Origin: a virus
Lineage: Duplodnaviria > Heunggongvirae > Uroviricota > Caudoviricetes
Virus record (IMG/VR): IMGVR_UViG_2695420480_000007
Strand: one strand, 5' to 3'
DNA: 13,918 nucleotides
In this document: positions 1-13,918 of the stretch, piece by piece
Layout of the letters: each line of letters begins with the position of its first letter
How positions within the stretch are numbered: position 1 is the stretch's first letter
Position numbers and translations under genes: made by a program
Notes under the pieces: model-generated
The model's input: the letters and a program-made list of their open reading frames with translations, nothing else
Told to the model about the DNA's origin: nothing
The model's database searches: none

Positions 1-993
1 TTATGCTAGAGTTGAATATTCTCCATTTCCTCGGTCGGTGAGTGTTAATTCGCGGCCATTTTCTGTAAATGTAATGGCATCCAGCAGGCTTTTTCCTGTT
101 ACAGCTATACCATATCCAAGGTTATCAATCTTTGAACTGTCCTCAGATGATATTGGTATTTGTACAAGCATACCAACAACAAGGCCGTATTTGTTAATTA
201 TAGGGCCACCGCTATTCCCCCCCTTAACCCTAGCATTGAATAATAAAAAGTCTTGTGAATCTAAGTAAGAGTGACCAGAACCAACAATTCGCCCCTTTGA
301 CAGTCGGACAAACGAATTTATATGCGAAACGTCATATAACTTTAATGCATCAAATCCTGGAATGGGTGGAAATCCTATTGATAAAATTTCATCCAGTACC
401 GAGGCTTTGGTTGAGACCTTAAGTGGTTGAATATTATCTTCATTCGGAATGGTTGTGAAAACTAAAGCGATATCAATACGTTCATCGTTAGATACAAAGA
501 TTTTATGTATTGGTAAAGCCTCACCACCAGCTCTAAGTATCCTGATACTCTTCATGTCTTCAATAACATGTCTGGCTGTAAATATCGTGTGGTTATTCCC
601 AACAATAAAACTAGTACCAAGATCATGTGAACCATCACTTTTTTCAACAACAACAGGTAAAACGGAAGGACTAAGGCGGTCTATGATTGACTCAAATCCA
701 TCAGCTATAAAATCATACTTTCCATATTTCGCATCTGATTCATTGAAATTCGGTGCGAAATAGCAACGGTCAAAAAGAGTATGTCCTGAAGACAATTCCA
801 TTAAAATACCTTCAGTTGCTAGCTTTTCACAATTGCGTATTAACTTCATCATATCGAGAGTATTTTCCCACTCAGGTTTGAGACGGGTCAGGCTCTCAAT
901 TGTTTTTCTCTCTTTTACGTTATCGTTTTCCGGTTTGTCATAAAAATATTTCACTATTTCTGTTGGTGTTACATATGTTTTTTTTATAGTCAT
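1..993 (-). CDS. Trypsin-like (S1/chymotrypsin-fold) serine protease with an N-terminal domain of about 115 aa of unknown function
   Basis: Track ORF 1..1047(-) starts at a GTG with no SD; first in-frame ATG is at 993 (MTIKK...) with a weak GGG 7 nt upstream, so 993 is preferred and 1047 is the alternative. Ordered motifs TARHV (His), DIALV (Asp), GNSGGP (Ser) fit an S1 catalytic triad. Stop TAA at 1-3, so the gene is complete in the window. AT-rich. Confidence 0.7.
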   Translation of the reverse strand: MTIKKTYVTPTEIVKYFYDKPENDNVKERKTIESLTRLKPEWENTLDMMKLIRNCEKLATEGILMELSSGHTLFDRCYFAPNFNESDAKYGKYDFIADGFESIIDRLSPSVLPVVVEKSDGSHDLGTSFIVGNNHTIFTARHVIEDMKSIRILRAGGEALPIHKIFVSNDERIDIALVFTTIPNEDNIQPLKVSTKASVLDEILSIGFPPIPGFDALKLYDVSHINSFVRLSKGRIVGSGHSYLDSQDFLLFNARVKGGNSGGPIINKYGLVVGMLVQIPISSEDSSKIDNLGYGIAVTGKSLLDAITFTENGRELTLTDRGNGEYSTLA

Positions 994-1410
994 TTTTGTA
1001 CCCGCGATGACGTTATTCCATATATTTTTCTTTGTAGAAAATATCACTATTGCTGGTAAATGTTAAGTTCAGTGCTCGCACTAAAGCTGGATGATCAACG
1101 TCGCCCTCGTATGGAAATCAGGTAAGATTCATGTCTACTTGGGGTCTAGGGTAGACAGCATAAAAACGTACAATAGCGTTCGATTGGCTCTCACCCCCGC
1201 CTATAAACCATGAGGTTGATAGGGTAGTATCGTTAGGCAATAGTATACATGTAAGTATCCAACCTAATTGGTCTTGAGATTTCTAACTAACGTGTCGTTA
1301 TGTCCGCTTTTGGCACATAGCAGCCCCAGAGACAGTGGTGTAAAGTCATGGAGGGTCGGTGGGAGGATATTCAGTTTCATTCATGCCGAAATACGGTAAA
1401 ATCTATAATA

Positions 1411-1514
1411 GATGGAAATCATTCAATACTCGCACTATCGAAAGTCCACCATCCAGCCGCAGCAAGTTCTTGCATACGACGTGTCAGCGGGTTCAACTCC
1501 CGCCAGCTCCACCA
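1411..1514 (+). repeat. Copy 1 of a paralogous non-coding element of about 80 nt; its last 28 nt (1487..1514) match the tmRNA (ssrA) 3' end including a GGTTCAANTCC T-loop and CCA
   Basis: Ungapped alignment of 1411..1490 against 4081..4160 gives 68/80 identities. 1487..1514 = gcgggttcaactcccgccagctccacca, which I recall as the 3' terminus of E. coli tmRNA (from memory, not searched). Confidence 0.5.
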
Positions 1515-1639
1515 ATCATGATTGGACGGTGTAAGGACAACACCAACAAAAACAGGATGTTAGCAGTCTCAGCAGGACACCGACCAGACGGTGAGGAGAC
1601 AAAAAAGGATACGCAAAGGAGCCGCAGCTCCCGAGTGAT

Positions 1640-1669
1640 AAAAAAGCCCGCTTATGCGGGCTTTTTTTT
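1640..1669. terminator. Bidirectional intrinsic terminator
   Basis: aaaaaa-GCCCGC-ttat-GCGGGC-tttttttt: 6-bp GC stem, 4-nt loop, A-run 5' and T-run 3', so it reads as a terminator on both strands. It lies 10 bp past the Bro-N stop on the minus strand. Confidence 0.65.
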
Positions 1670-1678
1670 CCCTCAAGC

Positions 1679-2440
1679 TCACTGACGTGTTCTTGCCTCA
1701 ACTACTTTCTGGTATATAGCGATAGCTTCATCAACCAAAGCTAATGGATAGCAAGAATTTATATTCAATCCGGAGGGGCACTTAATTCTTTCTGCTCCAC
1801 GTTCACTACGCAATTTTTCACACCATTGCCAAAGCTCCTCAACCGAATAGGTATCCAAACCTAACTCCATCAATCGTTGAGGAACACTTCTGAACTGAGA
1901 CAAATCTCTTAAACTTTCTAACGAGTTAACTTTTAGTTCAACTTGGTTTACTCTACTTTCTAACTCTTCACGTTTTTCTATTTCCATTACCAATGCTTGA
2001 ACCGTCTGCTGCAGACTGTTAGCAAAAGCACTCAGTTCTGAACGTTCTTGCTTAGGTGGCGGAGGATATACACCAAATTCACGAATAGACGGAAGGACCT
2101 GATGAAAAAGCCAGCGTTGGAATTTTTTCCCCGCAGCAGTAGTATCCTGAGCAAGTACTCTATATAGACCTGGTTCAGTAAGAAATACCTCAGAGATAGT
2201 TTCACCATCCACGACAAGAGAAACATTCCTAAACTCATCTGGATCTAAAGTTTTTATTACCGCTCTTATTACAGTGAGCAAGCTTTGAGAAGTCTTTCCA
2301 TCCAGTTTTCTGTTCTCAGCAGAAAGCGTTCTTAGCACATCTGAAAGTGAAACAAAAATCTGCCCTTTTTCATTCATGCTACGGATATAATTTTCTCCAC
2401 ACTCTCCTTCGTAGCATAATTGTAACAAATTCTTTTGCAC
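1679..2440 (-). CDS. Bro-N domain protein (phage antirepressor-like) with coiled-coil middle and C-terminal domain
   Basis: 253-aa ORF. N-terminal region (…IFVSLSDVLRTL…EPGLYRVLAQDTTAAGKKFQRWLFHQVLPSIREFG) has the Bro-N pattern. GTG start at 2440 preceded by AAGGAGGGG with 7-nt spacing; the nearby ATG is out of frame. Confidence 0.65.
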   Translation of the reverse strand: MQKNLLQLCYEGECGENYIRSMNEKGQIFVSLSDVLRTLSAENRKLDGKTSQSLLTVIRAVIKTLDPDEFRNVSLVVDGETISEVFLTEPGLYRVLAQDTTAAGKKFQRWLFHQVLPSIREFGVYPPPPKQERSELSAFANSLQQTVQALVMEIEKREELESRVNQVELKVNSLESLRDLSQFRSVPQRLMELGLDTYSVEELWQWCEKLRSERGAERIKCPSGLNINSCYPLALVDEAIAIYQKVVEARTRQ

Positions 2441-2463
2441 GCCATCCCCTCCTTTTTTTATGG

Positions 2464-2491
2464 ATTATACATCCTATAAACATGTTGTCAC
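2464..2491 (-). promoter_or_regulatory. Putative sigma70 promoter for the Bro-N gene
   Basis: On the minus strand: -35 GTGACA (plus 2486..2491), 16-nt spacer, -10 TATAAT (plus 2464..2469), followed by the SD and GTG start. Confidence 0.4.
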
Positions 2492-2718
2492 CGAAAGGGA
2501 AAAGCATAAACCCAATTTATGTTCCACAAGATGTTCAAAAATCAAACAACCATATAGCTGAGGAGCACAAAAGAGCAAAAGTTTACCAACCCCATATATC
2601 CATACAGCACATAAAATTGACACTACATATGGTATTTTTTAAGTTACGCCTTGCACCATTTCATGATTTTATGTAGATTGTCATCACACGCTGAGATTAA
2701 AAAATTCTACAATTTTTG

Positions 2719-2747
2719 TTGATCTTGAGTTTGGTTTTTAGTATAAG
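2719..2747 (+). promoter_or_regulatory. Putative sigma70 promoter for the XRE/ImmA operon
   Basis: -35 TTGATC (2719..2724), 17-nt spacer, -10 TATAAG (2742..2747), then SD AGGAGG (2762..2767) and ATG at 2774. Confidence 0.45.
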
Positions 2748-2773
2748 TGAGCATGGATTGTAGGAGGCGCAAC

Positions 2774-3124
2774 ATGGTAACTAGCTTTGGTAAGACTCTC
2801 AGAAAAATGAGAATAGACCGGGGTATGGTGCTCAAAAATATGGCTGATCTGTTAGGCGTTAGTTCGGCTTACTTATCCGCCATTGAATTAGGCAAAAGAG
2901 CTATACCGGACTCATTAGTAAATACGATTGCAACAACTTTTGAGCTTAGCGGACAAGACATCATCAATCTCAAGAAACAGGCAGAGATTTCTCAACCGTC
3001 CATTAAGGTTGATATGTCGGATGCAAATGAGCAGAACAAAGAACTAATGCTTGTTTTTGCTCGTAAATTTAAGGACCTGAGTCCAGAGCAACTCGATAAG
3101 CTTAATAAAATGTTAAAGGACTGA
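2774..3124 (+). CDS. XRE-family (Cro/CI-type) helix-turn-helix transcriptional regulator
   Basis: Track ORF 2747..3124; the likely start is ATG 2774, 6 nt after a perfect AGGAGG. HTH signature FGKTLRKMRIDRGMVLKNMADLLGVSSAYLSAIELGKR. Confidence 0.8.
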   Translation: MVTSFGKTLRKMRIDRGMVLKNMADLLGVSSAYLSAIELGKRAIPDSLVNTIATTFELSGQDIINLKKQAEISQPSIKVDMSDANEQNKELMLVFARKFKDLSPEQLDKLNKMLKD

Positions 3125-3127
3125 ATA

Positions 3128-3661
3128 ATGATTGCGAAACGAGAACTTGGCCATCGCGTTTCACCTCTCAGCACCAGCATGATTAAATCATACGCTCATC
3201 GTCTGAGAGACGTTCTTCAGATATCAAATCACACATATCTGAGACTGGATGTATTACTAGAAGGTCTTATGGCCTCAGAAAGCATTGAGCTAGAAATTGT
3301 TGAAGATCATGAACTGCCCAAACGCTATGCAGTGACTTATCCAGATAAGAACAAAATTGTTTTACAGCGATCTGTTTACGATGCAGTGTGCAATGGTGAG
3401 AACCATGCGAGATTCACTGTTGCGCATGAACTTGGTCATTTAGTCATGCATCGCAATCAAAGTATCTATGCACGTAATAAGACTAGTGGAGGGCATAAAA
3501 TCTATGAAGACAGCGAATGGCAAGCAGATGTTTTTGCAAGCCACTTCTTAATTGACTCAAGACTAGTTTTGCCCACAATGACTGTTGAAGATATAAGCAA
3601 AACATTTGGTGTCAGTCAACAAGCGGCTGAAACTTGGATGAGAAAAAATGCAAAAAGATAA
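3128..3661 (+). CDS. ImmA/IrrE-family (COG2856-like) zinc metallopeptidase
   Basis: 177-aa ORF starting 4 nt after the XRE stop (operonic). HEXXH motif in FTVAHELGHLVMH with downstream SEWQADVFASHFL, typical of ImmA/IrrE anti-repressor proteases. Confidence 0.8.
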   Translation: MIAKRELGHRVSPLSTSMIKSYAHRLRDVLQISNHTYLRLDVLLEGLMASESIELEIVEDHELPKRYAVTYPDKNKIVLQRSVYDAVCNGENHARFTVAHELGHLVMHRNQSIYARNKTSGGHKIYEDSEWQADVFASHFLIDSRLVLPTMTVEDISKTFGVSQQAAETWMRKNAKR

Positions 3662-3970: not shown

Positions 3971-4079
3971 CACTTCTGTTACGCGCACCACAGATAGAGT
4001 TTCAGCTAAAACTTTTGTTCATACCTAGGAGTCTGCTGACGAGTGGTTTGTTCACTAATAAACACGTAAAAACGGTAAC

Positions 4080-4165
4080 GGCTGGACATCATTCAATATT
4101 CGCACTATTGGAAGTTCACCAGCCAGCCACAGCACGTTCTTGCATACAACGTGCCTGCGGTTTTT
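4080..4165 (+). repeat. Copy 2 of the paralogous element of about 80 nt
   Basis: 85% ungapped identity to 1411..1490. Flanking stem GGCTGG (4080..4085) / CCAGCC (4119..4124) corresponds to GATGG/CCATC in copy 1, which is one compensatory A-T to C-G change. Confidence 0.5.
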
Positions 4166-4255: not shown

Positions 4256-5125
<870 letters not shown>

Positions 5126-5147
5126 GTCTTTAAGTGATAAGCATAAA

Positions 5148-5186
5148 CCGCAGCACGATCTTCTTGCATACGACGTGCTACGGTTT
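5148..5186 (+). repeat. Copy 3 (shortened) of the paralogous element, between the GIY-YIG stop and the invertase stop
   Basis: ccgcagcacgatcttcttgcatacgacgtgctacggttt aligns with the core of copies 1 and 2. It contains a potential 6-bp stem AGCACG/CGTGCT. A mirrored copy lies at 8275..8313 inside the inverted duplication. Confidence 0.45.
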
Positions 5187-5740
5187 CATTTATCTCCGAC
5201 CGGAAACTTCTTATACAGTGTCGATATACCAACATCATAGATGATCGCCACCTTCTGGCGAGGAACGCCTGATGCAATTAATCGCCCGGCCTGCGCCCAT
5301 TGTTCTGGTGTAAGTTTGGGACGACGTCCCCCAATTCGTCCCTGTGCGCGAGCAGCTTCCAGTCCAGCTTTTGTTCGTTCAACAATCAGTTCTCGTTCCA
5401 TTTCAGCCAAGGCACCCATCACATGAAAGAAAAAACGCCCCATCGGTGTGCTGGTATCAATAGCATCCGTCAGGCTGCGAAAATTAACGCCACGTTCGCG
5501 CAACTCCTCAACCAGAATGACCAGATGCCGCATACTACGCCCCAGCCGATCCAGCTTCCAGACAACCAGAGTGTCACCTGCCGATAATGTCCTGAGCAGT
5601 TTTTTCAGTCCCGGCCTTTCGGACTTTGTACCGCTTATCTTGTCTTCAAAAATAAGCTCGCATCCTGCACAGTTCAGCGCATTACGTTGTAGATCTGTGT
5701 TCTGGTCATTTGTTGATACGCGTACATAGCCAATAAGCAT
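5186..5740 (-). CDS. Serine recombinase, DNA invertase of the Pin/Gin/Hin/Cin (Din) family, copy 1
   Basis: Track ORF 5186..5776; the likely start is the internal Met giving MLIGYVRVSTNDQ… (184 aa, the Din-invertase length), with catalytic-Ser region YVRVST and a C-terminal HTH. 100% identical to copy 2. Confidence 0.85.
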   Translation of the reverse strand: MLIGYVRVSTNDQNTDLQRNALNCAGCELIFEDKISGTKSERPGLKKLLRTLSAGDTLVVWKLDRLGRSMRHLVILVEELRERGVNFRSLTDAIDTSTPMGRFFFHVMGALAEMERELIVERTKAGLEAARAQGRIGGRRPKLTPEQWAQAGRLIASGVPRQKVAIIYDVGISTLYKKFPVGDK

Positions 5741-5794
5741 GGTAGATCCCCCTGACAAAAGCAGGAATGATGCCATTTGCTCGTTATTTCTGCA

Positions 5795-5820
5795 TTTTCA
5801 TAAATGTTGGTTTGGGAGAA
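5795..5820. other. 26-bp Din-invertase crossover site (hix/gix-like), site 1
   Basis: TTTTCATAAATG-TT-GGTTTGGGAGAA; the inner half-site is the reverse complement of TTCTCCCAAACC. Exact inverted copy of site 2; the duplication boundary falls at its central dinucleotide. Confidence 0.5.
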
Positions 5821-6288
5821 GGTTCGGCATTACCCGTTGGTGTGCCTGTTCCGTGGCCTTCCGCCACTCCGCCAACAGGCTGGCTGAAATGCAACGGCGC
5901 GGCTTTCTCTGCTGAAGAATACCCGGAACTGGCAAAGGCTTATCCAACAAATAAATTACCTGATTTACGCGGTGAGTTTATTCGTGGCTGGGATGACGGG
6001 CGCGGTATTGATGCAGGACGTGTTTTATTGAGTATTCAGGCCGGAATGCTGGAAAAGCACCGTCATCCTGTTGTCGCCAACGATGGGTATGACTCAAAAG
6101 AGGAATGGGAACTGGCGACAATCTTCAGAAGAGCATATACGCAAGGCAGGGGGCTTGATGCTGCCGCTGCCGGAGGGAGTCTGATCCCATCACCGACACT
6201 TCATTCACGAGGGAGTATCGGTAATACTGGCGGGAGTGAAACCCGTCCACGAAATATTGCATTTAACTTTATCGTGAGGGCTGCATAA
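5809..6288 (+). CDS. Silent tail-fibre C-terminal variable cassette (Sv'), start-less in the current orientation
   Basis: Track ORF 5767..6288; its first 18 aa are read-through across the crossover site. The cassette (…GWLKCNGAAFSAEEYPELAKAYP…LPDLRGEFIRGWDDGRGID…) resembles Mu/P1/e14-type fibre C-terminal domains. Its stop overlaps the tfa' start (TAATG). Confidence 0.6.
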   Translation, partial: GLGEGSALPVGVPVPWPSATPPTGWLKCNGAAFSAEEYPELAKAYPTNKLPDLRGEFIRGWDDGRGIDAGRVLLSIQAGMLEKHRHPVVANDGYDSKEEWELATIFRRAYTQGRGLDAAAAGGSLIPSPTLHSRGSIGNTGGSETRPRNIAFNFIVRAA

Positions 6289-6890
6289 TGGATAACGCCG
6301 TATTAAATAGCGAGCTTATTGCCACGAAGGCGGGGAATATTACCGTCTATAACTATGATGGTGAAACTCGGGAATATATGTCTACTTCAAATGAATATCT
6401 TGCCATTGGTGTCGGTATCCCTGCATATTCCTGTTTAGATGCCCCTGGCACACATAAGGCGGGTTATGCTATCTGCCGTTCGATTGATTTAAACTCATGG
6501 GAATATGTGCCAGACCATCGCGGTGAAATCGTCTATAACACCGAAACGAGAGACGCCAAAGAAATCACAGCTCCGGGTGATTATCCTGAAAATACAACCA
6601 CTATCGCCCCGTTAACGCCATACGATAAATGGGATGGTAAGAAATGGGTGACCGATACTGAGGCACAGCATAGCGCCGCAGTAGAAGCGGCAGAAGCACA
6701 GCGCCAGTTGCTGATTGATGCTGCTATGGCTTCCATCAGTCTGATTCAGCTGAAATTGCAGGCCGGGCGGAAGCTGACGCAGGCAGAAATCACCCGCCTT
6801 AACGCTGTACTGGATTACATTGACGCGGTGACGGCAACAAATACCAGCACAGCGCCGGATGTCATCTGGCCTGAATTGCCGGAGGCGTAG
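6288..6890 (+). CDS. Tail fibre assembly protein (Tfa', 200 aa; U'-like)
   Basis: 200-aa ORF translationally coupled to Sv'; Tfa-like composition and C-terminus. Converges on and overlaps the opposite-strand tfa by 29 nt, as in Mu G and e14 P segments. Confidence 0.75.
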   Translation: MDNAVLNSELIATKAGNITVYNYDGETREYMSTSNEYLAIGVGIPAYSCLDAPGTHKAGYAICRSIDLNSWEYVPDHRGEIVYNTETRDAKEITAPGDYPENTTTIAPLTPYDKWDGKKWVTDTEAQHSAAVEAAEAQRQLLIDAAMASISLIQLKLQAGRKLTQAEITRLNAVLDYIDAVTATNTSTAPDVIWPELPEA

Positions 6891-7293
6891 GCCATTCAAT
6901 ATCTGGATCACTGGAGGTATCAATCAGTTCCAGTGCGTCCAGATAATCCAGCCACAGATTATATTGCGCCAGTTCCTCGCCTTTCAGACGACCAATAGCG
7001 GCTTTACCGGGCCATTGCTTACTGTTCATGTATTCGTTGGCCTGATTAACTAATCGCTGTTTATTTGATTCAGCGATTGTGATTAATTCTTCGCTGGTAA
7101 GTGGTGGCGCATCCTGCCATATTGGAAAACCATTTTTATCTGAACCAAGTATTTTACCATCAGGCCATGCAACTCCTGCGAACTCAGAATAAATAGTAAA
7201 GTTTATTTTCGTAGCGTTCTCAGGAATGGTTTGGCTATCTGGTGAAATATAAAACCCCGAATCAGAGGGATTAAAATAATATGTCTTTTCCAT
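6862..7293 (-). CDS. Tail fibre assembly protein (Tfa, 143 aa; U-like), copy A
   Basis: 143-aa ORF, identical to 8700..9131. ATG 2 nt after the stop of the upstream Sv cassette. Confidence 0.75.
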   Translation of the reverse strand: MEKTYYFNPSDSGFYISPDSQTIPENATKINFTIYSEFAGVAWPDGKILGSDKNGFPIWQDAPPLTSEELITIAESNKQRLVNQANEYMNSKQWPGKAAIGRLKGEELAQYNLWLDYLDALELIDTSSDPDIEWPTPPAIQAR

Positions 7294-7295
7294 AG

Positions 7296-7653
7296 TTAAT
7301 ACCCCACAGCCATCCAGTAAATTGAATTTGTTGTAGCAGAAGTGTAAGTAAATCTGATTTTAGTTCTGTTGGTACTTCCAATATCAAAGCCCACAGAACG
7401 GGCAGAAGGATCATTAGTTGAAATAAGAGCATTTACCGAACGACAAGCCGCAGGGAAAGCTACAGGTAATGTTATATCAACTGTTCCAACACTTCCTCCG
7501 GTTGGTGAGACAGAAAAACTCCCCCATTGAATAATCATCCCCCCAGGTAATTTCTGGTATCCATTGGCGGTCAATGAGTTACCAAAGCTGTTCATATCCG
7601 GTACCTGATTTTCTCCTGTCCCCACATTCCTTTTTGCTGCTTCTCCCAAACCA
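7296..7653 (-). CDS. Tail-fibre variable cassette Sv, duplicate copy not fused to a constant region (silent)
   Basis: Track ORF 7296..7694; identical to the C-terminal 118 aa of the stf gene at 9134..9781. Here the sequence upstream of the site is the invertase leader, not the fibre constant region. Confidence 0.6.
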
Positions 7654-7666
7654 ACATTTATGAAAA
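7641..7666. other. 26-bp Din-invertase crossover site, site 2
   Basis: TTCTCCCAAACC-AA-CATTTATGAAAA. The left half plus central AA (7641..7654) is identical to site 3 (9479..9492); the right half is identical to the outer half of site 1. Confidence 0.5.
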
Positions 7667-7720
7667 TGCAGAAATAACGAGCAAATGGCATCATTCCTGC
7701 TTTTGTCAGGGGGATCTACC

Positions 7721-8275
7721 ATGCTTATTGGCTATGTACGCGTATCAACAAATGACCAGAACACAGATCTACAACGTAATGCGCTGAACTGTGCAGGATG
7801 CGAGCTTATTTTTGAAGACAAGATAAGCGGTACAAAGTCCGAAAGGCCGGGACTGAAAAAACTGCTCAGGACATTATCGGCAGGTGACACTCTGGTTGTC
7901 TGGAAGCTGGATCGGCTGGGGCGTAGTATGCGGCATCTGGTCATTCTGGTTGAGGAGTTGCGCGAACGTGGCGTTAATTTTCGCAGCCTGACGGATGCTA
8001 TTGATACCAGCACACCGATGGGGCGTTTTTTCTTTCATGTGATGGGTGCCTTGGCTGAAATGGAACGAGAACTGATTGTTGAACGAACAAAAGCTGGACT
8101 GGAAGCTGCTCGCGCACAGGGACGAATTGGGGGACGTCGTCCCAAACTTACACCAGAACAATGGGCGCAGGCCGGGCGATTAATTGCATCAGGCGTTCCT
8201 CGCCAGAAGGTGGCGATCATCTATGATGTTGGTATATCGACACTGTATAAGAAGTTTCCGGTCGGAGATAAATGA
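7721..8275 (+). CDS. Serine recombinase, DNA invertase of the Pin/Gin/Hin/Cin family, copy 2
   Basis: Track ORF 7685..8275; ATG 7721 preceded by AGGGGG 8 nt upstream. Identical to copy 1 in inverted orientation. Confidence 0.85.
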   Translation: MLIGYVRVSTNDQNTDLQRNALNCAGCELIFEDKISGTKSERPGLKKLLRTLSAGDTLVVWKLDRLGRSMRHLVILVEELRERGVNFRSLTDAIDTSTPMGRFFFHVMGALAEMERELIVERTKAGLEAARAQGRIGGRRPKLTPEQWAQAGRLIASGVPRQKVAIIYDVGISTLYKKFPVGDK

Positions 8276-8313
8276 AACCGTAGCACGTCGTATGCAAGAA
8301 GATCGTGCTGCGG
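8275..8313 (-). repeat. Inverted copy of element copy 3
   Basis: Reverse complement of 5148..5186, lying within the 985-bp inverted duplication. Confidence 0.45.
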
Positions 8314-8335
8314 TTTATGCTTATCACTTAAAGAC

Positions 8336-8625
8336 TCAAAAATCAGGTGAGTAACGGACCGGGGACATAGCTCCTTTTTTTCTTAATTCATCTGGTATTT
8401 TTTTTCCAAGATAAAGATTTGCTATTTCAGGTGGGGCTTCTCGACCTTCAAAACCATAGCGAGAACTTTGTGTTGCCTCAAAGTCCGGATCCTCGTCCCA
8501 GTATTTCATCGTAGGGAAATTTTCACGTGTTGATTTGAGCCATTTATCAGCAATGAAAACCCCTCGAACGATCCCCCTTACAGTAGCAAGAATGACTTCT
8601 GCTTGGCTGGCGCGAGAGACATTAA
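8336..8625 (-). pseudogene. 3' fragment of the GIY-YIG gene (codons 180..274), inverted duplicate
   Basis: Reverse complement of 4836..5125, exact. Track ORF 8336..8761 is a chimera of this with antisense tfa sequence. Confidence 0.7.
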
Positions 8626-8728
8626 AATCACCCGCCTTAACGCTGTACTGGATTACATTGACGCGGTGACGGCAACAAATACCAGCACAGCGCCGGATGT
8701 CATCTGGCCTGAATTGCCGGAGGCGTAG
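8625..8728 (+). pseudogene. 3' fragment of tfa' (direct duplicate of 6787..6890)
   Basis: Identical to the end of the 200-aa tfa' gene but lacks its 5' 500 bp; begins at the non-site junction at 8625. Confidence 0.6.
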
Positions 8729-9131
8729 GCCATTCAATATCTGGATCACTGGAGGTATCAATCAGTTCCAGTGCGTCCAGATAATCCAGCCACAGATTAT
8801 ATTGCGCCAGTTCCTCGCCTTTCAGACGACCAATAGCGGCTTTACCGGGCCATTGCTTACTGTTCATGTATTCGTTGGCCTGATTAACTAATCGCTGTTT
8901 ATTTGATTCAGCGATTGTGATTAATTCTTCGCTGGTAAGTGGTGGCGCATCCTGCCATATTGGAAAACCATTTTTATCTGAACCAAGTATTTTACCATCA
9001 GGCCATGCAACTCCTGCGAACTCAGAATAAATAGTAAAGTTTATTTTCGTAGCGTTCTCAGGAATGGTTTGGCTATCTGGTGAAATATAAAACCCCGAAT
9101 CAGAGGGATTAAAATAATATGTCTTTTCCAT
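8700..9131 (-). CDS. Tail fibre assembly protein (Tfa, 143 aa), copy B, cognate to the expressed fibre
   Basis: Identical to 6862..7293; directly downstream of the stf gene. Confidence 0.8.
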
Positions 9132-11070: not shown

Positions 11071-11420
11071 TGGAGCCATACAGCCTCACACTCGATGAGG
11101 CCTGTCATTTTCTCAAGATATCCAGACCGACTGCCATTAACTGGATACGCACAGGGCGTCTTCAGGCAACACGCAAAGATCCCACTAAGAATAAATCTCC
11201 TTACCTCACAACACGACAAGCCTGCATTGCGGCTCTTCAGTCTCCGCTGCATACTGTCCAGGTGAGCGCGGGTGATGGCATAACAGAGGAAAGAAAATGT
11301 CACTCTTCCGCAGAGGTGAAATATGGTACGCCAGTTTCACATTGCCGAACGGTAAAAGATTTAAACAGTCTCTTGGAACAAAGGACAAAAGGCAGGCGAC
11401 AGAACTCCATGACAAGCTAA
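11070..11420 (+). CDS. xis: Excisionase (Xis), P22-like, 116 aa
   Basis: Internal start of track ORF 10986..11420; ATG 11070 preceded by GAGGTG. DNA-binding motif [26 protein letters not shown]. Overlaps int by 124 nt in another frame. Confidence 0.65.
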
Positions 11421-12460
11421 AGGCTGAAGCATGGCGGGTCAGCAAACTTGGTGAAATACCTGATATAACGTTCGAGGAAGCGTGTGTCAGGTGGCTTGAA
11501 GAGAAAGCACATAAAAAATCACTGGACGATGACAAAAGCCGGATCGGATTCTGGCTTCAACATTTCGCAGGAATGCAACTAAGAGACATTACTGAATCAA
11601 AAATTTATTCAGCAATGCAGAAAATGACGAACCGGCGTCATGAGGAAAACTGGAAACTCAGGGCAGAAGCATGCAGAAAAAAAGGGAAACCTGTTCCAGA
11701 ATACACGCCAAAACCAGCGTCCGTTGCAACGAAGGCTACGCATCTTTCATTTATAAAGGCCCTACTAAGAGCCGCAGAGCGTGAATGGAAAATGCTGGAT
11801 AAGGCACCAATTATTAAAGTGCCTCAACCAAAGAATAAACGGATCCGCTGGCTGGAGCCCCATGAAGCACAAAGGCTGATTGATGAATGTCCGGAGCCAT
11901 TAAAGTCTGTTGTTGAATTTGCACTGGCAACAGGCTTAAGACGCTCGAACATCATCAACCTTGAATGGCAACAAATAGATATGCAGCGCCGGGTGGCATG
12001 GATAAACCCGGAAGAGAGTAAATCAAACCGCGCAATTGGCGTTGCGCTGAATGATACTGCATGTCGCGTATTGAAAAAACAAATCGGGAATCATCACCGT
12101 TGGGTATTTGTGTACAAGGAAAGCTGTACCAAACCAGACGGAACGAAAGCGCCAACAGTAAGGAAGATGCGGTATGACGCAAACACAGCCTGGAAAGCGG
12201 CGCTGAGACGGGCTGGTATTGATGATTTCAGATTTCACGACTTGAGACACACCTGGGCAAGTTGGCTGGTTCAAGCCGGAGTCCCGTTGTCAGTGTTACA
12301 GGAAATGGGAGGCTGGGAGTCTATCGAAATGGTTCGTCGATATGCTCACCTTGCACCTAATCACCTTACCGAACACGCACGGCAAATAGACTCGATCCTG
12401 AACCCATCGGTCCCAAATTTGTCCCAGTCAAAAAATAAGGAAGGTACTAATGATGTGTAA
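11297..12460 (+). CDS. int: Tyrosine site-specific integrase, P22/thrW-targeting family
   Basis: 387-aa ORF with SD GAGGA. N-terminus [47 protein letters not shown] matches my recollection of P22 Int; C-terminal catalytic region has R…HDLRHT…Y. Ends 14 bp from the thrW 3' end. Confidence 0.9.
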
Positions 12461-12474
12461 CTTATTGATTTAAA

Positions 12475-12550
12475 TGGTGCCGATAATAGGAGTCGAACCT
12501 ACGACCTTCGCATTACGAATGCGCTGCTCTACCAACTGAGCTATATCGGC
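12475..12550 (-). tRNA. thrW: tRNA-Thr (anticodon CGU)
   Basis: Reverse complement gives a 76-nt tRNA: GCCGATATAGCTCAGTTGGTAGAGCAGCGCATTCGTAATGCG…GGTTCGACTCC…CACCA, with anticodon loop tTCGTaa, T-loop and encoded CCA. Adjacent to proA as in E. coli/Salmonella. Confidence 0.9.
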
Positions 12551-12664: not shown

Positions 12665-13918
12665 TTACGCACGAATGGTGTAATCACCAATGCCGATCCA
12701 CTTGTAAGTGGTCAGTGCTTCCAGCCCCATTGGGCCACGCGCGTGGAGTTTTTGTGTGCTTACCGCCACTTCCGCACCCAGACCAAACTGGCCGCCGTCG
12801 GTAAAACGCGTAGAGGCGTTAACGTAAACAGCGGACGAATCCACTTCGTTAACAAAACGCTGGGCGTTGCGCATATCGCGGGTCAGGATCGCATCGGAGT
12901 GTTGTGTGCCGTGTTCACGAATATGGGCGATGGCATCGTCAAGATCGCTGACGATTTTGACGTTCAAATCTAATGACAGAAACTCATCGTCATACTCTTC
13001 GGCTTTAACAGCAACCACCTTCGCAGGGCCTGCCTGCAACTGCGCCAGTGCAGCTGCATCTGCGTGTAATGTCACGCCGCTTTCCGCCATTTGTTTGCTT
13101 AATGCGGGCAGGAAGCTATCGGCGATGTTTTTATTCACCAGCAACGTTTCAACCGTATTACATGTGCTCGGACGCTGAGTTTTCGCGTTGACGATCACTT
13201 TTAATGCTTCAGCGATCTCTACACTTTCATCAACGTAAATATGGCATACGCCTATACCACCTGTGATCACCGGGATTGTCGACTGTTCACGGCACAGTTT
13301 ATGCAAACCAGCGCCACCACGCGGGATCAGCATGTCGATGTATTTATCCATACGCAGCATTTCACTGACCAGCGCACGGTCAGGATTATCAATCGCCTGC
13401 ACGGCACCCGCCGGTAAGCCGCAGGATTTCAGGGCGTCCTGAATCACCGCCACCGTTGCAGCGTTAGTGCGACACGTTTCTTTGCCACCGCGCAGGATCA
13501 CCGCATTACCGGTTTTCAGGCACAGCGAAGCGACATCAACCGTCACGTTCGGGCGCGCTTCATAAATCACGCCAATAACCCCCAGCGGTACGCGACGACG
13601 CTCAAGACGCAGGCCGCTGTCCAGTACGCCGCCATCGATTACCTGCCCCACCGGATCGGCGAGGTTGCACACCTGACGTACATCGTCGGCAATGCCTTTC
13701 AGCCGTGCGGGCGTCAGTGCCAGACGGTCAAGCATCGCTTCGCTAAGGCCATTGGCTCGCGCGTCAGCAACATCCTGGGCGTTAGCGTTGAGGATGATTT
13801 CGCTTTGTGCTTCCAGTTCATCGGCGATTTTTTCCAGCACGCGATTTTTTTCGCGGCTGGAGAGTTGCGCTAATTTATACGAGGCTTGCTTCGCGGCAAT
13901 GCCCATTTGTTCCAGCAT
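12665..13918 (-). CDS. proA: Gamma-glutamyl phosphate reductase (glutamate-5-semialdehyde dehydrogenase)
   Basis: 417-aa ORF matching E. coli ProA as I recall it ([21 protein letters not shown]…); the start codon is the last three bases of the window. Confidence 0.95.

Follow-up and report, generated by a model that had tools for sequence, protein, structure and literature searches.

The DNA analysed here, which we call the window, is a stretch of 13,918 nucleotides from a virus record of the Caudoviricetes (IMG/VR IMGVR_UViG_2695420480_000007). Read from right to left, it contains proA, the tRNA gene thrW, a tyrosine integrase gene, a tail-fibre and invertase region that is heavily deleted and rearranged, accessory genes, a 28-nt sequence corresponding to the 3' end of ssrA, and a peptidase gene. 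Copies of a repeat that we designate R are also present. From left to right the features are:

1..1047, minus strand: trypsin-like (S1) peptidase gene (Pfam Trypsin_2; annotated as S1 family peptidase in strain A22)
1300..1395, plus strand: upstream extension of R, present in some R copies only
1396..1490, plus strand: R1, a non-coding R copy, with a near-invariant stretch of ~33 nt (1416-1448) and a hairpin (1457-1490)
1487..1514, plus strand: copy of the ssrA 3' end, the att-site core of ssrA-integrating phages (exact 28-nt identity)
1515..1678, plus strand: ssrA downstream flank ('flankN'), ending in an A-run/hairpin/T-run terminator
1679..2440, minus strand: Bro-N domain gene (Pfam Bro-N), the first arm gene common to the ssrA-resident sister phages
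2747..3661, plus strand: HTH regulator and ImmA/IrrE metallopeptidase pair (PADLOC capH, capP; annotations in relatives)
4066..4163, plus strand: R2, a second full R copy, 82% identical to R1, with a hairpin followed by TTTTT
4301..5125, plus strand: PD-T4-3 anti-phage GIY-YIG nuclease gene ('LEM-3-like GIY-YIG'; PADLOC E = 2.7e-140)
5150..5185, plus strand: R3, an incomplete R copy consisting of the hairpin alone, directly adjoining the pin stop codon
5186..5776, minus strand: Pin-type DNA invertase gene (Pfam Resolvase and HTH_7), with a second, inverted copy at 7685-8275
11297..12460, plus strand: tyrosine integrase gene of the SfV/SfII/SfIV/P22 thrW-specific type, abutting thrW
12475..12550, minus strand: thrW, tRNA-Thr (CGU), the attachment site actually used, adjoining proA
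12665-13918, minus strand: proA

The window is a decayed prophage of the SfV/SfII/SfIV type at thrW. Its integrase is 100% identical to that of SfIV, 98.5-99.5% identical to those of SfII, SfI, SfV and the E. coli phage phi458, and 90% identical to those of the P22-like Salmonella phages ST64T and L; the Sf phages and the P22 group are thrW integrators. In relatives, a 48-nt block from the 3' end of thrW (12473-12520) recurs as attR and marks the other end of the prophage, 0.3-3 kb beyond the ssrA core. In strain A22, which matches window positions 1-2700 at 99.96% identity with a single mismatch, this attR copy is found ~650 nt to the left of window position 1. The locus thus combines an integrase beside thrW, a far-end repeat (in strain A22, outside the window) and a Mu/e14-like tail module with pin, as in SfV-like thrW prophages, and the first-pass annotation was right to anchor the island at this tRNA gene. 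Because relatives have this attR copy on the far side of the cargo, the 28-mer lies within the thrW prophage and not at its edge.

The prophage carries a perfect 986-nt inverted repeat (4836-5821 and 7640-8625, with 1818 nt between the arms) that includes the end of the PD-T4-3 gene, an R hairpin and the entire pin gene, as well as a perfect 300-nt direct repeat (6787-7086 and 8625-8924). The tail-fibre inversion region has been duplicated and rearranged, or else is possibly misassembled. Past the prophage attR, strain A22 contains a second thrW-associated island (L002, 4015-11214) with integrase fragments, IS1, the vat autotransporter toxin gene and a MarR regulator, forming a tandem array at thrW.

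The 28-mer (GCGGGTTCAACTCCCGCCAGCTCCACCA, plus strand, 1487-1514) occurs once in the window. Alignment with the annotated ssrA of E. coli KSC1031 gives 28 of 28 identities with the final 28 nt of the gene (L003, 564-591), which bears out the original identification of this segment as the 3' terminus of E. coli tmRNA. No chance copies of the ssrA 28-mer are expected in the window; 200 shuffled controls gave zero matches with three or fewer mismatches. It runs from the T-stem through the T-loop and back along the T-stem to the 3' acceptor strand and ACCA. In the alignment, similarity to the ssrA locus sets in precisely at 1487, and the remark that the sequence 5' of the 28-mer does not resemble tmRNA also holds. 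ARAGORN found no tmRNA in the window, its sole call being thrW, and Rfam at gathering thresholds reported only the tRNA (thrW). In a permissive Rfam scan the tmRNA model covers just 1487-1503, with 16 bits against a threshold of 47, and tmRNA_permuted reaches 21 bits, again against 47. We therefore ruled out a tRNA-like or tmRNA gene at this position: ARAGORN and Rfam give nothing past the fragment and a 5' acceptor strand is missing. The element does not show the tRNA-like domain with both acceptor strands, the tag reading frame and the pseudoknots that characterise a tmRNA gene.

Similarity to the ssrA locus continues beyond 1514 to ~1678, through a terminator hairpin. This segment shares 91-95% identity with the DNA immediately following ssrA in most complete E. 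coli genomes; 4317 of 5426 genomes have a match, and their median copy number is one. The K-12 ypjF-ypjA spacer, on the distal attR side of CP4-57, is 90% identical to the segment, which the Citrobacter phage phiNP carries as well. Folding places the terminator at 1640-1669, with a stem formed by 1646-1651 and 1656-1661 and a T-run at 1662-1669. The stem shows compensatory changes between copies, and partial Rfam alignments likewise show the 1646-1669 terminator. A simple terminator scan of the window missed it, probably because the A-run pairs with the T-run. As core, flank and terminator were copied together, the captured block is ~190 nt long. The Bro-N gene, on the minus strand, is convergent toward this terminator, which probably still ends both Bro-N transcription and read-through from R1. 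The limits first drawn around the element (1411-1514) were too narrow on both sides: 1411 is an arbitrary start, the true repeat copy spanning 1396-1490.

Positions 1515-1640 of the flank are purine-rich and contain seven GGA motifs, including CAGGAUG, CAGGACA and, in a hairpin loop, AAGGACA; a sub-threshold RsmZ-like Rfam match scores 25 bits against 44. The flank forms several hairpins that show compensatory changes from copy to copy, and the phage copies that have decayed furthest have lost five of the seven GGA motifs. It may be a structured 3' trailer of tmRNA; its GGA enrichment is modest.

The closest counterparts of this block are found in sister phages at ssrA itself. Window positions 1487-2700 are 98.9% identical, over 1219 nt, to the ssrA-prophage junction of E. 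coli KSC1031. The order there is smpB, ssrA (core), flank, Bro-N, HTH/ImmA, PD-T4-3 and pin, followed by tail, head, lysis and regulation genes, integrase, DarTG, a second core and an intA-type island, and the two cores form a direct repeat (L003, 564-591 and 39634-39661). In FDAARGOS_1297, core and flank are present at both prophage ends, with 94.5% identity to the window on the ssrA side and 89.4% at the distal end, where the copy borders on native DNA that leads to glaH. The flank is thus both native beside ssrA and phage-borne, which rules out reading it as solely phage or solely host DNA. The Citrobacter phage phiNP has the same layout, with core and flank at its start, and its integrase is 92% identical to WP_016243805.1, that of KSC1031. 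This ssrA-type integrase contains an Arm-DNA-bind_2 domain (Pfam) and aligns with the window integrase only locally, over 162 residues, at just 25% identity. Among the matches listed in a search of phage records with core plus flank, only phiNP and PhiR12_1 appeared, and no Shigella or thrW-type phage.

These comparisons show that an SfV/e14-like myophage family exists in two integration versions. The circular order of the ssrA version is int' - cargo - P arm - core - flank - Bro-N ... tail, and its lysogens carry core and flank directly on ssrA and the core again at the opposite end. In the thrW version the elements run int(thrW) - attP(thrW) - cargo - R - core - flank - Bro-N ... pin ... tail, with the ssrA core 0.3-3 kb inside the prophage and without a cognate integrase. 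The core therefore marks the boundary of an element with an ssrA integrase in KSC1031, FDAARGOS_1297 and phiNP but not in the window. The check for a direct repeat that had been proposed accordingly gives a divided answer, with two copies in ssrA lysogens and a single one in the window. The suggestion that the fragment was captured from an ssrA-type element is upheld, as the core, flank and Bro-N arm of the sisters constitute a true ssrA-prophage junction. The fragment is also, as had been supposed, an att scar of ssrA-integrating elements; the choice of CP4-57 as the model does not stand, the source being an SfV/e14-like myophage with an Arm-DNA-bind_2 integrase. A scar of a CP4-57 or P4-like intA island was itself considered and rejected, since the core is followed on its right by the ssrA flank and the Bro-N arm, and none of the 5426 genomes has R1-core joined to intA-island DNA.

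To the left of the core lies R1. Its 28-nt search motif (1418-1445) falls within the near-invariant stretch, and its hairpin is formed by CCGCAGCAAGT and ACGTG-T-CAGCGG. The upstream extension is 80% identical to lambda 24162-24351 and 95% identical to phage phi458, and is present in thrW-type relatives. R3 has an inverted twin at 8276-8311 that abuts the stop codon of the second pin gene. A query with window positions 1300-1600, which includes the ssrA core and part of the flank as well as R, gave about 20,000 matching places in 5418 of the 5426 E. coli genomes; among them are copies of R, for example in the chromosomal ecpE-ykgJ spacer. R occurs in lambda (J02459, 24162-24351) between ea31 and ea47, in HK97 (20941-21040) directly after sib, beside the phi458 invertase, in one P2-like prophage and in at least 120 viral contigs. 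When 55 distinct copies are aligned, the near-invariant stretch reads GGAAATCATTCAATACTCGCACTATCGAAAGT and the consensus 3' hairpin, of 11 bp, reads CCGCAGCACGT...ACGTG-n-CTGCGG.

RNAalifold missed the 3' hairpin in this alignment due to gaps, and the pairing test was based on a hand-specified structure, the R hairpin plus a weaker upstream helix, for which pairs were counted. Pairing was found in 92.7% of cells (93.2% for the hairpin) versus 26-58% when partners were slid; four hairpin pairs, and five pairs in the whole structure, show compensatory change, and the covariation score was matched by no shuffle. Most copies have a T-run after the hairpin. In R1 the ssrA core stands in place of the T-run, and 2 of the 11 hairpin pairs are mismatched. 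With a covarying hairpin and a T-run in most copies, R resembles the 3' end of a transcript, terminator included, in the plus direction of the window. A reverse-strand reading frame in R (MISSRYRFY...), considered as a possible small protein or type I toxin, was rejected because neither its frame nor its length (6 to ~50 codons) is conserved. We also ruled out R1 as the P arm of an ssrA-type attP that would span 1300-1678, because the sequences to the left of the distal core in KSC1031, FDAARGOS_1297 and phiNP are AT-rich and unrelated to R. The lambda, HK97 and MG1655 records examined contain no annotation of R; in MG1655 no feature is annotated between ecpE and ykgJ, the spacer in which other strains have R. 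A literature search on the R sequence, on features between lambda ea31 and ea47 and on thrW/ssrA module exchange found nothing specific.

R1 and the core meet at GCGG (1487-1490), which is both the last 4 nt of the R1 hairpin and the first 4 of the 28-mer. The R-core-flank composite was found at 22 loci, flanked at varying distances by thrW attR on its upstream side and pin on its downstream side, and in at least 297 complete genomes. In the commonest single junction form, CTGCGGT is joined to TTCAACTCCCGCC, with ssrA identity from the T-loop onward; in the group to which the window belongs, C(A/T)GCGGG is joined to TTCAACT and the full 28-mer is present. Several composite lineages have decayed cores, for example TCAACTCCGTCCCCCACCA. 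The native R/pin junction reads GCGGTTTCATTTATCTCC versus GCGGGTTCAACTCCCGCC in ssrA, and contains a look-alike of the core, GCGGTTTCA against GCGGGTTCA. Comparison of the junctions places the join at the T-stem/T-loop edge, between CTGCGG(T/G) and TTCAACT. Tyrosine integrases directed at tRNA T-loops exchange strands at this edge. In phage phi458 the thrW-type arrangement lacks the insert and reads int - cargo - R - invertase. If an integrase had made the insertion at R/pin, a reciprocal junction would be predicted; it is absent from the 5426 genomes, but would have been lost in any case.

The 28-mer is intact in the window lineage and in two relatives (L061 and L092) with flanks that are 7-8% diverged, which could be a sign of selection, or of repeated conversion by ssrA, as opposed to pure decay. 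Two others (L075 and L059) share the attR allele of K-12 (L006, 3001-3020), which has a one-base deletion (CCAGC-CCACCA), and a further one (L081) shares the attR allele of FDAARGOS_1297 (L014, 43513-43535), from which TCCAC is lost. These shared degenerate alleles indicate that thrW prophages have exchanged DNA, by recombination or conversion, with the chromosomal ssrA locus as well as with ssrA-type phages, and that this exchange is continuing.

The genes around R and the attachment sites are variable. The peptidase gene, whose product has weak PADLOC matches to RT-Protease and LmuA protease domains, fills a cargo slot between thrW attR, just left of the window, and R1; elsewhere the same slot holds retron Ec48 (L004, 8064-10983) or nothing (L005, 7782-8001). 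The corresponding slot of the ssrA-type phages, between integrase and attP, contains DarTG in KSC1031 (L003, 38187-39503). A second slot, to the right of the flank, is occupied either by Bro-N/CapH/CapP-like genes or by a type II restriction-modification system. CapH and CapP are damage-responsive regulators of CBASS and other defence operons; the pair at 2747-3661 resembles them and adjoins the divergent Bro-N gene, with no recognisable defence effector there. The PD-T4-3 gene has the full R2 upstream and the hairpin-only R3 downstream, as if it had been inserted into or beside an R element. Overall, the slots at the attachment site and R look like a prophage defence hotspot.

The explanation that we favour, with a probability of roughly 0.7, is that the 28-mer and its flank are a relic half attachment site within a decayed thrW prophage, left by an exchange of integration modules between thrW-type and ssrA-type phages. 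An ssrA-type phage would have gained host DNA consisting of the core and the downstream flank with its terminator, plausibly through an aberrant excision that captured the right-hand flank and so generated the order P arm - core - flank - accessory arm. With core and flank carried by the phage, integration would rebuild a complete, terminated ssrA. This half site would later have become joined to the 3' hairpin of R in a thrW-type phage. In one route (a), an ssrA-type integrase would have inserted its phage at the look-alike at the R end of a resident thrW prophage, creating a B-O-P'-type junction, and homologous deletion between the tandem, related phages would then have left the chimera. In the other (b), microhomology-mediated illegitimate recombination at this point would have been combined with homologous exchange in the tail genes. 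Both routes fit the data. At present the core is presumably a scar without a role in integration, because there is no second core in the window, no ssrA-type integrase and, in the 5426 genomes, no joining of R1-core to the common intA-type island, and cores decay elsewhere. The 190-nt homology patch could nonetheless recombine with the ssrA locus.

A different origin, in which the block was taken directly from the chromosomal ssrA region or an attR by illegitimate recombination or gene conversion, without a sister phage, would account for the native character of the flank in most genomes and for the degenerate core alleles that some phage composites share with chromosomal attR. We nevertheless consider it unlikely. 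thrW and ssrA are ~2.5 Mb apart on the K-12 map, so aberrant excision from thrW cannot reach ssrA; moreover, the block runs directly into the Bro-N arm, and it is phage-borne copies that the window copy resembles most, at 98.9% identity to the ssrA-phage junction versus 89-90% for chromosomal attR copies. The first-pass annotation had also offered a secondary attachment site, and a live landing pad or decoy attB for the ssrA-specific integrases of phages, satellites and P4-like islands would agree with the intact 28-nt core, the native-like right-hand flank and the unchanged cores of L061 and L092. The genome survey lends no support to that proposal: R1-core is joined to the common intA-type ssrA island in none of the 5426 complete E. 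coli genomes, the window has one core copy only, and many lineages have degenerate cores, as expected without selection, all of which makes a live site very improbable.

The structures on either side of the join could also be read as one functional regulatory RNA of ~280 nt, tRNA-like or CsrA-binding, running from R1 through the T-arm and the GGA-rich flank to 1669. Positions 1396-1680 fold better than shuffled sequences (z = -3.2), and the seven GGA motifs, the RsmZ-like match, the compensatory changes in the flank hairpins and the covarying R hairpin are all in keeping with it. We regard this as the most far-fetched of the readings, given that the 5' acceptor strand is missing, neither a tRNA nor a tmRNA is called here, the GGA enrichment is about two-fold over composition (a rough estimate), the structures come from two separate sources and are merely juxtaposed, and both cores and GGA motifs decay in other lineages. 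A composite that is live as a whole, with R as a conserved, structured non-coding module bordering accessory and defence cassettes of temperate coliphages such as lambda, and with the core as an ssrA-integrase landing pad and homology patch, is a somewhat better prospect than either a live secondary site or a regulatory RNA, though an outside one; if it were true, defence cargo could move between the thrW and ssrA hotspots.

The relic half site matters little on its own, but it provides a clear, datable case of integration-module swapping between phages of thrW and of ssrA, both of which rank among the most heavily used island sites in E. coli. It illustrates that fragments of tRNA or tmRNA genes inside islands need not mark boundaries or tandem insertions and can mislead software that delimits islands, and the 190-nt block common to both hotspots offers a route for recombination between them. 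The by-products of the analysis, R and the defence-gene cargo around it, matter more. R is an unannotated, conserved non-coding element in lambda and thousands of prophages; it brackets a slot with varied anti-phage genes (PD-T4-3, retron Ec48, restriction-modification and the trypsin-like peptidase, with DarTG in a sister phage).

R can be compared with the moron boundary elements, the promoter/terminator-flanked accessory cassettes of lambdoid phages, which Juhala, Hendrix and colleagues reportedly described. Like these, R lies between accessory cassettes and has a covarying hairpin, usually with a T-run after it; unlike these, it has a near-invariant stretch of 33 nt, conserved across lambda, HK97, P2-like and SfV-like phages, that a plain terminator would not need. 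The window prophage shares with SfV, SfII, SfIV, SfI and phi458 an integrase 98.5-100% identical to theirs, the thrW site beside proA and a Mu/e14-like tail module with the pin invertase. It differs from them in being a deleted remnant and in the contents of the accessory slot between tail fibres and attP, where those phages carry gtr genes; in the window this slot contains no gtr genes but the peptidase, the ssrA relic, Bro-N, the CapH/CapP-like pair and PD-T4-3. e14 and phage 21 at icd, and P22 at thrW, carry a replacement 3' end of their target gene. The ssrA-type sisters resemble them in carrying a host-like 3' end of the target together with downstream sequence, whereas in the window the replacement segment has been split from its integrase and is off target.

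The relic also resembles ssrA att scars such as CP4-57 attR of K-12, in that a 3'-terminal fragment of ssrA from the T-arm forms the attP/attB identity block and the same block is the direct repeat flanking ssrA-resident prophages. ssrA fragments as att scars are said to belong to the 'traffic at the tmRNA gene' picture of K. P. Williams. In contrast to scars of the CP4-57 attR type, the window copy is neither at ssrA nor at an element boundary but internal to a thrW prophage, has no partner repeat and no cognate integrase, is followed by 165 nt of downstream flank, and derives from a tailed phage instead of a P4-like island. It is an att-site scar of a known kind, in an unusual place and with a long flank, most likely produced by ordinary phage mosaicism.
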